Assembly (NCBI RefSeq): GCF_048403405.1
Contig: NZ_CP183129.1
Length of the DNA stretch: 64,000 nt
Origin: Escherichia coli
GTDB taxonomy: Bacteria; Pseudomonadota; Gammaproteobacteria; Enterobacterales; Enterobacteriaceae
Reading direction: 5' to 3' (one strand)
Positions 52,506 to 56,733 of this stretch are shown in pieces (position 1 is the stretch's first letter; every line of letters starts with the position of its first letter). The translations under genes were made by a program, and so were the position numbers. The notes under the pieces were generated by a model. The model ran no database searches. It worked only from the letters and a program-made list of their open reading frames with translations, and had not been told where the DNA came from.

Positions 52506-52706
52506 ATGGGACTTAAGTGGACCGATAGCCGCGAAATTGGCGAAGCACTGTACGATGCGTATCCCGATCTTGATCCGAAAACGGTTCGATTCACCGATAT
52601 GCATCAGTGGATTTGCGATCTGGAAGATTTCGACGACGACCCGCAGGCATCTAACGAAAAAATCCTCGAAGCGATTTTGTTAGTCTGGCTTGACGAAGCC
52701 GAGTGA
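52506..52706 (+). CDS. iscX: IscX (66 aa, acidic)
   Basis: Small acidic ORF immediately after fdx. Confidence 0.85.
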
Positions 52707-52950
52707 TTTCCCCGTCATGCTTCACGCCGCAGATGCGTTGGCTGCGCTCGTTCACCCCAGTCACATAGTTATCTATGCTCCTGGGGCTTCACTCACTTGC
52801 CGCGTGATTCGGCCTTTTGGCCTCACCCCTCCGGGGCCAGCGCAAGCGCTGTTCAAAACGCAATGCGTTTTGTCCTGCAACGCGAATCATTTAGCGGAAA
52901 AATCCTGGGGCTGCCAACTGGCGGCCCTTTTACAAAGAAGGATAACTAAA

Positions 52951-54244: not shown

Positions 54245-54320
54245 TGGCCTACAAAATTGCGAAAATCCAATAGATTGCGAATCCCTTGTAGGCCTGATAA
54301 GCGTAGCGCATCAGGCACTT
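54245..54320. repeat. REP/BIME-like palindromic repeats between pepB and sseB
   Basis: ggcctacaa...ttgtaggcc 9-bp inverted repeat enclosing duplicated attgcgaa, followed by REP-like gtaggcctgataagcgtagcgcatcaggca. Confidence 0.5.
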
Positions 54321-54352: not shown

Positions 54353-55129
54353 ATGTCCGAAACAAAAAACGAACTTGAAGATCTGCTGGAAAAAGCAGCA
54401 ACCGAACCGGCGCACCGCCCGGCCTTTTTCCGTACGCTACTGGAATCCACCGTCTGGGTGCCGGGTACGGCGGCGCAGGGCGAGGCTGTGGTTGAAGATA
54501 GCGCGCTTGATTTACAGCACTGGGAAAAAGAAGACGGCACCAGCGTCATTCCTTTTTTTACCTCGTTAGAAGCACTTCAACAGGCGGTTGAAGACGAACA
54601 GGCATTTGTCGTAATGCCCGTTCGCACATTGTTTGAGATGACCCTTGGCGAAACGCTCTTCCTTAATGCCAAACTGCCGACCGGTAAAGAATTTATGCCG
54701 CGTGAAATCAGTTTGTTGATTGGTGAAGAAGGAAATCCGCTGAGCAGCCAGGAAGTACTGGAGGGCGGTGAATCGCTGATATTATCGGAAGTCGCAGAGC
54801 CACCAGCACAAATGATTGATTCACTCACCACCTTATTTAAAACTATTAAGCCGGTGAAGCGTGCTTTTATTTGTTCAATTAAAGAGAACGAAGAGACACA
54901 GCCTAATTTACTTATTGGCATTGAAGCCGATGGTGATATCGAAGAAATTATTCAGGCGGCGGGAAGTGTAGCGACCGATACATTACCTGGCGATGAACCC
55001 ATCGATATTTGTCAGGTGAAAAAAGGGGAAAAAGGAATTAGCCACTTTATTACCGAACATATTGCGCCATTCTATGAACGTCGCTGGGGTGGCTTTTTGC
55101 GTGACTTTAAACAGAACCGGATAATCTAA
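54353..55129 (+). CDS. sseB: SseB, enhancer of serine sensitivity (258 aa)
   Basis: ORF 54344..55129; start at MSETKNELEDLLEKA. Confidence 0.85.
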   Translation: MSETKNELEDLLEKAATEPAHRPAFFRTLLESTVWVPGTAAQGEAVVEDSALDLQHWEKEDGTSVIPFFTSLEALQQAVEDEQAFVVMPVRTLFEMTLGETLFLNAKLPTGKEFMPREISLLIGEEGNPLSSQEVLEGGESLILSEVAEPPAQMIDSLTTLFKTIKPVKRAFICSIKENEETQPNLLIGIEADGDIEEIIQAAGSVATDTLPGDEPIDICQVKKGEKGISHFITEHIAPFYERRWGGFLRDFKQNRII

Positions 55130-55134
55130 AATAT

Positions 55135-55152
55135 GCCGCCCCAAAGGGCGGC
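55135..55152. terminator. hairpin shared by sseB (+) and the convergent ryfA-like RNA (-)
   Basis: gccgccc-caaa-gggcggc; on the minus strand the stem is followed by AUAUUUUAGAUU. Confidence 0.55.
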
Positions 55153-55160
55153 ATTCGGGC

Positions 55161-55298
55161 TTACTTGCTGCTCTGAAGTTTGTTAACCACCAGTAAATTG
55201 TTACCGGAGAGACTCCGGTTATTATTTACCTCGGTTAACAGCGCACCAGAAACAATAAGTACGATACAAAAGCACCGTATCTTCATTGTGCGGTCCAT
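55161..55298 (-). CDS. candidate small hydrophobic (TimP/type I toxin-like) protein, 45 aa (41 aa from second ATG at 55286)
   Basis: Manual translation: MDRTMKIRCFCIVLIVSGALLTEVNNNRSLSGNNLLVVNKLQSSK; in-frame TGA five codons upstream of the first ATG; no obvious SD; too short for the ORF track. Confidence 0.4.
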   Translation of the reverse strand: MDRTMKIRCFCIVLIVSGALLTEVNNNRSLSGNNLLVVNKLQSSK

Positions 55299-55505
55299 GC
55301 GAAGACCGCATCACGACAGCACCACTGGCGATATTGCCGCGATAGCAAGCGCTGAGACGCGCTTGCCCTAACGGTCGCGGAACATCCTTTCCTTGAGCCA
55401 GCGCCCGCTTGCGAGACGGCGGAAAGGGCCGGTGTCGATAATACGCTAAATAAACAATGATTACTCTCTTTCGCTTGACAAAAAGAGAGTTACTGGCGAG
55501 TATTG

Positions 55506-55606
55506 TGTCCGCTGAGACGCGCTTGCATTACTACGGTAATACAATCTGCTGGAAAGGCCGCGAACCAAACCAGCAACAAATAACCGCCTGATTTTGGCGG
55601 TTTTTT
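55506..55606 (+). ncRNA. candidate antitoxin-type sRNA, module 1 (approximate)
   Basis: TTGACA (55475-55480)-18 bp-AGTATT, then about 100 nt ending in aaccgcc-tgatttt-ggcggtt + TTTTTT (55582-55606); nt 55510-55526 are perfectly complementary to the minus-strand RNA at 55350-55366. Confidence 0.45.
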
Positions 55607-55784
55607 GTTGCTTAAAGAAAGTGAATTTACATGTTTAAGTAATATCTTTTACCGGTTAGTATTTTTAATATTGAGCGGGATTTGTTTATATTTGTCTGAA
55701 TTCGGACTGATAAGCCAAATGAATTCAAAATCTATCCTTTTTTATCTACTTGACATCGTTGATGCATAAAGCGAGTATTGAGTA

Positions 55785-55871
55785 GACGAGATACACTTGC
55801 AGTAATACAACCTGCTGGAAAGGCCGCGAACCAGACCAGCAATAAAAAACCGCCAAATTCGGCGGTTTTTT
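55785..55871 (+). ncRNA. candidate sRNA, module 2, paralog of module 1 (approximate)
   Basis: TTGACA (55750-55755)-18 bp-AGTATT, then a shared core ctgctggaaaggccgcgaacca-accagcaa and terminator ccgcc-aaattc-ggcgg + TTTTTT (55850-55871); lacks the 17-nt complementary box. Confidence 0.4.
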
Positions 55872-55887
55872 ATTGCCTGTAAAAAGC

Positions 55888-56733
55888 TTATTTCAATGGC
55901 TCAACCGGTAAATCTGCCCGTGCGCCCCATTCACTCCATGCGCCGTCGTACAGTTTCACGTTTGGCACATCAAGTGTCGCGAGTGCCAACAAAACCACGG
56001 CTGCCGTTACACCAGAGCCGCAGCTGACGATAATCGGTTTGTCATAGCTGACGCCGCGACCAAAAAATATCGCATCCAGTTCATCGGTCGTTTTTAGTTC
56101 GCCTTCGCGCACCAGTTCCGTCCACGGAACGTTCAATGCACCGGGAATATGTCCGCGACGTAAACCTGGGCGAGGTTCATCAACTTCTGCGTTAAAACGT
56201 GCAGCCGGGCGGGCATCAATAATTTGCGCCGTATTTTCATGGCTTGCCAATAACACATCGGTGACTTTCACCACGGCTTCAGGATTAAACGTGGCGTTAA
56301 ACTCTCCTTCCGGCAGCTCTACTGCACCTTCTTCTAACAGCAGATCATCGCGCTGCCAGCCTGCAAGTCCACCCCCCAGAATCGACACTTTCTCTACACC
56401 AAAGGTGCGCAGCATCCACCATGCTCGTGGGGCTGAGAAAAGATTACCTTCGTCATAGACAATCAGGTGCTTATCCTGGTTAACGCCTAATTCACGCATC
56501 GCCACGGCGAACGTTTCCGGGCGCGGCAGCATGTGCGGAAGCGGGGAAGTGTGATCAGAAAGCGCTTCGATATCAAAAAACACTGCGCCGGGAATATGTC
56601 CATTCAGATACTCCTGAGCAACGTTACGATCTTCCTGTCCAGGCGACGCCATGCGGGCATCAATAATCTGAATTTCCGGGTCATCAATATGTTCGGCGAG
56701 CCAGTCGGCTCCTACAAACCATGTCGTGGACAT
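55888..56733 (-). CDS. sseA: 3-mercaptopyruvate sulfurtransferase, tandem rhodanese domains (281 aa)
   Basis: ORF 55888..56892; start at MSTTWFVGADWL; active-site Cys loop CGSGVTA. Confidence 0.9.
   Translation of the reverse strand: MSTTWFVGADWLAEHIDDPEIQIIDARMASPGQEDRNVAQEYLNGHIPGAVFFDIEALSDHTSPLPHMLPRPETFAVAMRELGVNQDKHLIVYDEGNLFSAPRAWWMLRTFGVEKVSILGGGLAGWQRDDLLLEEGAVELPEGEFNATFNPEAVVKVTDVLLASHENTAQIIDARPAARFNAEVDEPRPGLRRGHIPGALNVPWTELVREGELKTTDELDAIFFGRGVSYDKPIIVSCGSGVTAAVVLLALATLDVPNVKLYDGAWSEWGARADLPVEPLK

Follow-up and report, generated by a model that had tools for sequence, protein, structure and literature searches.

Tandem TimR-family sRNA genes between timP and sseA of Escherichia coli, including a distal paralogue of different specificity

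Two paralogous modules of approximately 130 bp each are located between ryfA/timP and sseA in a 64-kb stretch of Escherichia coli DNA, which was analysed as a whole and is referred to here as the window. Judged from sequence, predicted structure, and predicted pairing, both are sRNA genes of the TimR/RyfB family: module 1 is the cognate antitoxin gene of the adjoining timP toxin gene (specificity type alpha), and module 2 is a paralogue of another specificity (type delta). It is likely that module 2 is an orphan that stems from a former toxin-antitoxin cassette and shares its terminator with sseA. While the timPR system itself is already known, the allele and the orphaned arrangement are new; in the literature searched, no description was found of the delta type, of the state with one toxin and two antitoxins, or of the noncognate proximal TimR of K-12.

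Two paralogous sRNA modules between timP and sseA

In Salmonella and other enterobacteria, the antitoxin of the timP (ryfA) type I toxin-antitoxin system is TimR, an sRNA whose gene diverges from timP and whose 5' end pairs with the timP 5' UTR, blocking TimP translation (PMC7667032, PMC11228461). It is also known as STnc2070, or as RyfB1 in Shigella, and is approximately 100 nt long (PMC7667032, PMC11228461, PMC5333039). Homologous TimR/RyfB transcripts have been reported in Salmonella, Shigella, CFT073, and CH138 (PMC7667032, PMC5333039, PMC13188913), and in the E. coli strains CFT073 and CH138, TimR is visible on northern blots (PMC13188913).

The 821 bp that span both modules are 100% identical to E. 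coli strain TUM14771, in whose locus timP is annotated by PGAP. The order of elements is sseB (+), ryfA-timP (-), module 1 (+), a spacer matching "IS128" (-), module 2 (+), and sseA (-), with the following features (window coordinates, strand, identity, and basis).

Ending at 55129, + strand: sseB.
55128..55432, - strand: ryfA RNA, i.e., the timP toxin mRNA (Rfam RF00126, 309 bits, full length).
55161..55286, - strand: timP coding sequence, a small toxic inner-membrane protein of 41 aa (PGAP on the identical locus L002, 362-487, mapped to the window; ORF listed).
55350..55366, - strand: alpha-type TimR target box in the timP 5' UTR (the 17-nt module 1 box repeated on the same strand; the -44 kcal/mol duplex forms here).
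55475..55503, + strand: putative module 1 promoter, TTGACA, 17-bp spacer, GAGTAT (read from the sequence; hexamers conserved in all TimR alleles as well as in Citrobacter and Kluyvera).
55507..55608, + strand: module 1, alpha-type TimR (RyfB-like) sRNA with predicted ends (17/17 complementarity to timP; fold with SL1, SL2, and terminator).
55510..55526, + strand: alpha antisense box of module 1 (17-nt repeat, duplex energies).
55564..55741, - strand: Rfam IS128 match, comprising the AT-rich inter-module spacer and the module 1 terminator in reverse (RF00125, 179 bits).
55750..55778, + strand: putative module 2 promoter, TTGACA, 17-bp spacer, GAGTAT (read from the sequence; BLAST conservation).
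55782..55873, + strand: module 2, delta-type TimR paralogue and apparent orphan here, predicted RNA of approximately 90 nt (aligns with the TimR family without the SL1 5' arm; fold z-score -5.6; no pairing with the local timP).
55785..55801, + strand: delta recognition box GACGAGATACACTTGCA (single in the window; 17/17 complementary to the delta-type timP of L044, L060, L061, and L065).
55812..55841, + strand: conserved core and stem-loop 2 of module 2 (21-nt core same as in module 1).
55839..55876, both strands: palindromic intrinsic terminator, usable by module 2 (+) and sseA (-) (inverted repeat; hairpin and U-run on either strand).
55888..56733, - strand, stop codon at 55888-55890: sseA (3-mercaptopyruvate sulfurtransferase), convergent with module 2 (PGAP on the identical locus; ORF).

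An alignment of 55465-55615 with 55740-55880 yielded a mean column identity of 84%, and a 70-nt direct repeat (55536-55605 and 55802-55871) is 84% identical. Moreover, the 64-kb window contains exactly two copies of a 21-nt core, CTGCTGGAAAGGCCGCGAACC (55546-55566 and 55812-55832), where none is expected by chance. A preliminary description of this DNA had proposed tandem modules with a common TTGACA, a common core, and a Rho-independent terminator. These elements were found again, with TTGACA at 55475-55480 (module 1) and 55750-55755 (module 2), the identical core in both modules, and the terminators in the predicted folds. The -10 element had been described as gAGTATTg after an 18-bp spacer; the bases are the same, but we read them as GAGTAT after a spacer of 17 bp (55498-55503 and 55773-55778). 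Neither module promoter was flagged in a consensus promoter scan of the sequence, since the -10 element agrees with the consensus at just 3 of 6 positions. Therefore, the case for a putative sigma-70 promoter rests on conservation, TTGACA-17-GAGTAT being kept across TimR alleles and genera (Citrobacter, Kluyvera).

The modules differ at their 5' ends. One DNA strand carries the 17-nt box CGCTGAGACGCGCTTGC both in ryfA (55350-55366) and in module 1 (55510-55526), and since ryfA is encoded on the minus strand, the RNAs of module 1 and of ryfA/timP are perfectly complementary over it. Module 2 carries GACGAGATACACTTGCA at the equivalent position (55785-55801), and the 8 nt forming the 5' arm of the first hairpin are absent from it; GAGA and CTTGCA are common to both boxes. 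Thus, while module 2 is indeed devoid of the 17-nt box of module 1, as had been described, the wording that it lacks an antisense box applies to the alpha box: the box has not been lost but is represented by a homologous one of other specificity.

Family membership was computed from sequence and structure, for which 11 distinct TimR sequences were aligned (E. coli alleles, gut-metagenome contigs, and sequences of Citrobacter and Kluyvera). In the consensus, a single-stranded 5' box is followed by a short SL1, whose compensatory changes are GC-to-AU, and then by the invariant SL2 and a terminator. Module 1 begins 43 bp from the ryfA 5' end and is divergent from timP, its 5' end is complementary to timP at 17 of 17 positions (-44 kcal/mol), and SL1 is located at 55527-55540. 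The 3' scaffold, i.e., SL2 with the core followed by the intrinsic terminator, is present in both modules. Module 2 lies in the same sseB-sseA intergenic region with no adjoining timP, so that a small hydrophobic toxin ORF, as expected for a type I toxin-antitoxin system, accompanies module 1 only (the 41-aa timP in the ryfA match). Furthermore, among the 11 aligned TimRs, the 5' arm of SL1 is missing from module 2 alone, owing to an 8-nt gap. Apart from this gap, module 2 fits the TimR architecture and is therefore assigned as a TimR-family gene with a different 5' box; the missing SL1 implies that even the delta allele may be impaired.

Rfam contains no TimR family. The matches to AgrB (RF02891, 28.8 versus a gathering score of 40) and RNAI (RF00106, 22.5 versus 47) were rejected, being driven by the terminator, and all weak matches on the modules (AgrB, RNAI, rimP, Leu-leader, and IS128) are sub-threshold and located on the terminators. 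Elsewhere in the window, an AaHKsRNA22 match was obtained at 52808-52880 (-) upstream of pepB (45.3 bits, above the gathering score of 39.8) and is adjoined by sub-threshold matches to V_AS5 and CssrA (52635-52880, -), and a sub-threshold ES036/CssrF match lies between pepB and sseB (54253-54295, +); these matches may represent repeat elements. The K-12 names ryfB and ryfC of sRNA libraries refer to what we take to be the shoB/ohsC locus and not to the sseB-sseA locus. Library data for K-12 ryfB/ryfC (e.g., PMC4606813) were left out.

As an exact pattern with one free base, which does not find core variants, the 21-nt core recovered loci of Escherichia, Citrobacter, Salmonella, and Kluyvera (L011, L013, L015, and L018). 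The scan of genome contigs returned only eight loci, two of which (in a Phycisphaerae MAG and an Oscillospiraceae MAG) were discarded as chance matches devoid of timP/TimR context. That the core is constant while the 5' box varies freely among genera could reflect conservation for protein binding or for structure.

The module 2 terminator is a palindrome (55839-55876) with a long hairpin followed by a U-run, and it folds strongly on both strands. The preliminary description had recognised its symmetry and placed it 18 nt past the sseA stop; the palindrome stands, and the distances are 16 nt between the sseA stop and the T-run end (55871) and 11 nt between the stop and the palindrome end. That it serves sseA as well, as proposed there, is supported by this geometry, by the folding of both strands, and by the same arrangement at single-cassette loci of Escherichia sp. 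and Citrobacter, where the TimR terminator likewise abuts sseA. The shared bidirectional terminator thus appears to be ancestral, and its use by sseA plausibly explains the persistence of the distal module's 3' part.

Pairing specificity and the distribution of the delta toxin

Cognate and noncognate pairing was computed with RNAduplex. Module 1 pairs with the local timP at -44.2 kcal/mol (shuffles -26.8 +/- 2.8), and module 2 at -17.7 kcal/mol, which equals the shuffles (-18.8 +/- 2.9), its longest run being 5. These duplex energies led us to reject the idea that module 2 cross-represses the local timP. That module 2 might nevertheless repress the resident alpha timP more weakly than module 1 does, in the way AgrA acts on dinQ, would be suggested by the architecture, since in the similarly built dinQ-agrA/agrB locus the toxin mRNA is still lowered by a paralogue of partial complementarity (PMC3567139), and by the GAGA and CTTGCA shared between the boxes. 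We regard this as extremely improbable, since the duplexes (-16.7 to -17.7 kcal/mol) are not better than those of shuffles and contain no perfect run longer than 5, and since RyfB1 is without effect on RyfA2 although that pair is more similar (PMC5333039).

Across the E. coli loci compared, the timP box and the TimR box change together. Four specificity types were distinguished, with names coined in this analysis; their boxes, given on the window + strand, are as follows.

Alpha: CGCTGAGACGCGCTTGC (window timP and module 1).
Beta: GCTGTGAA[A/G]CACCTGC (K-12 timP).
Gamma: CACTGTGGGGTGCCTG (O157 and others).
Delta: GACGAGATACACTTGCA (window module 2).

In a 4x4 duplex matrix, cognate combinations ranged from -33 to -38 kcal/mol and noncognate combinations from -14 to -27 kcal/mol. 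The delta TimR forms 17 perfect pairs with delta timP (-33.3 kcal/mol), compared to a longest run of 5 with the alpha timP of the window (-16.7 kcal/mol). For the variable region of ryfA, Fris et al. listed four versions, including CGCGT, TGTTT, and CACCC/CCCCC (PMC5333039), which correspond to the alpha, beta, and gamma boxes, respectively. The delta variable region, TGTAT in the RNA, is absent from these four published versions and constitutes a fifth.

Population frequencies were computed for 5,426 complete E. coli genomes. The delta module was found in 394 of them, with one copy each, and its promoter and 5' region (55745-55812) is at least 99% identical by BLAST in 390 of the 394 carriers; among the matches listed, this segment is 100% identical, some matches stopping before a C/T site at 55811. 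The delta box has no other match in the 64-kb window, and BLAST, to which matches shorter than approximately 19 nt are not visible, revealed no second place for it in any of the 5,426 genomes. A chimeric BLAST query, consisting of alpha timP flanks and the delta box, had returned alpha as its best result; this test was flawed because the real delta timP has beta-like flanks, and it was superseded by a query with L044. The latter, a gut-metagenome contig, is one of 37 loci from a metagenome scan for alpha-like timP boxes. It harbors a timP with the delta box as well as a distal TimR that is 100% identical to module 2 of the window, including the same spacer junction. With this query, delta-type timP was identified in 39 of the 5,426 genomes, and subtraction (394 - 39) leaves approximately 355 genomes with delta TimR and without delta timP. 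As for complements of the module 2 5' region, for which a genome search had been suggested, no target of the delta box was found in the window, and the delta-type timP of other E. coli strains provides one.

Nine delta-bearing genomes were sampled in even steps down the match ranking. Alpha timP, alpha TimR, and delta TimR were found in 7 of the 9, as in the window, while the remaining 2 encode delta timP, a beta-like TimR, and delta TimR. In TUM14771, the window-identical locus holds the single timP place, which is of alpha type; in this strain type, module 2 thus lacks a partner and is an orphan antitoxin gene, as judged from the 64-kb window and the 100% identical locus of this one complete genome. 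The expectation of a duplicated regulator of which one copy had lost or changed its target is thus borne out, in that the modules are paralogous sRNA genes and module 2 cannot pair with the local target.

Insertion sequences were observed at some delta loci. In three genomes with delta timP (L060, L061, and L065), an IS200/IS605-family element separates CCAGCAA from the delta TimR terminator, having inserted exactly between the two; as the end of the element provides its own hairpin and T5 right after SL2, the sRNA may still terminate. Strain MSB1_4I (NZ_LR898874.1) carries a delta-type timP, and its match to the delta TimR promoter begins at query base 8, inside the -35 element, with an IS1A transposase underlying the locus match; the promoter of the cognate antitoxin may hence be disrupted.

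Origin and present role of the distal module

Full tandem duplicates were found at two loci (L006 and L007), which encode sseB, timP, TimR, the spacer, an 87-nt sseB 3' fragment, timP, TimR, and sseA, and thus represent the S. dysenteriae-like state. In K-12, the spacer is still there, together with part of the sseB fragment and the initial bases of the second timP; from the window, the whole second timP is gone. These sequences suggest that module 2 stems from a former second timPR cassette. In K-12 MG1655 (L001, ~675-1140), timP is of beta type and the adjoining TimR of alpha type. The cognate beta TimR of this strain is the distal module, approximately 320 bp further, with a stump of the second timP 5' end and its promoter region just upstream.

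Of the 5,426 E. coli genomes, 2,153 contain the IS128 spacer, which is flanked by a module on either side in all spacer-bearing loci that were retrieved. Compared to this number, only approximately 177 additional timP places were identified, from which it follows that roughly 2,000 genomes (approximately 40%) possess two TimR genes and one timP. A derivation of the spacer from a decayed sseB 3' end was rejected (local alignment score 18, shuffles 17.5 +/- 2.4).

Traces of recombination were found at several places. The 555-bp alleles that are common in other strains are without exactly one 266-bp repeat unit, the outcome expected of recombination between the two module cores. Loci of the window type and of the delta/beta/delta type share the right half (spacer, delta TimR, and sseA) and differ in the left half, and delta could therefore have been orphaned by deletion of the second toxin gene or by replacement of the left half through recombination. 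Moreover, the window segment separating the 5' end of ryfA from the -35 element of module 1 (55433-55473) was compared with that of eight other alpha/alpha/delta genomes; 10 of 43 positions differ, 9 of them in the window alone. It agrees instead with the promoter region of beta cassettes, namely copy 1 of L006 and the remnant in K-12; the locus is thus a mosaic, and the segment looks like a gene-conversion patch.

Outside E. coli, a locus of Salmonella enterica subsp. arizonae CCUG 6322T (L015, reverse-complement strand) was observed in which, just upstream of the core match, the timP 3' part joins the TimR hairpin and core directly. A deletion between the two boxes, which lie on the same strand, seems to have removed the 5' ends of timP and TimR along with both promoters, and if so, the direct-repeat boxes are a deletion substrate.

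Taken together, module 1 would act as the cognate alpha-type antitoxin of the adjoining timP, and module 2 as a delta-specific TimR whose box fits a rare timP allele that is absent from the strain. Module 2 would derive from a second timPR cassette that has been reduced to its antitoxin gene, either because the toxin gene was deleted or because recombination swapped the left half of the locus; we infer both the order of these recombination events and the orphan's lack of function. From the TimR-type promoter, we further infer that module 2 is probably still transcribed into an RNA of approximately 90 nt ending at the terminator shared with sseA. As this RNA cannot repress the resident timP, the main present role of module 2 is therefore likely to be that of the shared terminator.

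Whether the rest of module 2 is already dead, kept as nothing but the sseA terminator and with too little time for the remainder to decay, has to be weighed against this. The strain has no cognate target for module 2, SL1 is gone, and a whole 266-bp unit is missing from the common 555-bp alleles; in addition, strain 98222 (L063), 1 of the 9 sampled alpha/alpha/delta genomes, carries a 37-nt deletion (window 55843-55879) that removes the terminator shared by module 2 and sseA. The position of the TimR terminator next to sseA at the single-cassette loci of relatives fits a dead remnant as well. However, the promoter hexamers, box, and core of module 2 are intact, with the near-invariance of promoter and box in the 390 of 394 carriers described above, the same sequence is the sole cognate antitoxin in delta-timP genomes, and module 2 is less diverse than its flanks, so that we regard a dead remnant as unlikely. 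Promoters homologous to that of module 2 are, moreover, active in Salmonella, Shigella, CFT073, and CH138 (PMC7667032, PMC5333039, PMC13188913). In nine alpha/alpha/delta genomes, module 2 contains 1 SNP in 138 nt (pi 0.004), compared to a pi of 0.009-0.03 in the flanking segments. This low diversity could reflect selection on the orphan for some function rather than a passive leftover, or it may result from recent spread, the sample of nine genomes being small.

A function in trans, on other mRNAs or as immunity against an incoming delta-type timP, would account for the good conservation of the orphan in approximately 355 genomes despite diverse sseA flanks. It would also be in line with APEC, in which the phenotypes of a ryfA deletion vanish upon additional deletion of timR, leading the authors to propose that a TimR without its partner has an activity of its own (PMC13188913). 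We nevertheless consider such a function very doubtful: no target was found in the window or by BLAST over E. coli genomes, a search to which short seeds are invisible, recent spread explains the low diversity equally well, and the box of the APEC TimR differs, so that effects need not transfer. A broader proposal, which we judge quite improbable, is that the sseB-sseA region is a diversifying toxin-antitoxin hot spot with at least four co-varying timP/TimR classes, in which approximately 40% of strains, K-12 among them, maintain a noncognate TimR as immunity or as an sRNA with new targets.

Implications and comparison with known systems

Work on ryfA/timP and timR in E. coli, including studies of UPEC and APEC virulence, generally assumes one toxin and one antitoxin. 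Our counts indicate two TimR genes, and usually one timP, in approximately 40% of complete E. coli genomes. Since the TimR closest to timP is not always the cognate one, as exemplified by K-12, deletion mutants or "timR" probes could hit the wrong copy or leave a second one in place. The main value of the findings thus lies in a caution for those working on timPR in E. coli; furthermore, the natural TimR genes without partner could be used for testing whether TimR has targets beyond timP.

With TimR (STnc2070; PMC7667032, PMC11228461), module 1 agrees in the sseB-sseA locus, the divergence from timP, the 5' complementarity, the stem-loop, and the intrinsic terminator, i.e., in all respects visible in sequence. 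Module 2 is unlike TimR in that it has no adjoining timP, its box is mismatched to the timP of the strain, and the first hairpin is absent. The Rfam family IS128 (RF00125) corresponds to neither module itself, as it covers the opposite strand of the spacer and the reversed module 1 terminator.

In Shigella dysenteriae, ryfB1 and ryfB2 of approximately 100 nt are encoded divergently to ryfA1 and ryfA2, and RyfB1 lowers RyfA1 and not RyfA2 (PMC5333039). The window resembles this system in its tandem paralogous sRNAs of approximately 100 nt in the same intergenic region and in a specificity that is set by a short variable region of ryfA (PMC5333039). However, S. dysenteriae possesses two complete toxin-antitoxin pairs, whereas the window holds one toxin and two antitoxins. 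The latter arrangement, one small membrane toxin gene with two tandem divergent paralogous sRNAs, is also that of dinQ-agrA/agrB, where only one of the two sRNAs is a fully complementary and effective antitoxin (PMC3567139). The sequences of both systems are unrelated (Rfam AgrB score of 28.8, below the gathering score of 40), and while AgrA keeps 25 of 31 complementary positions to dinQ, module 2 keeps essentially none to the timP of its own strain.
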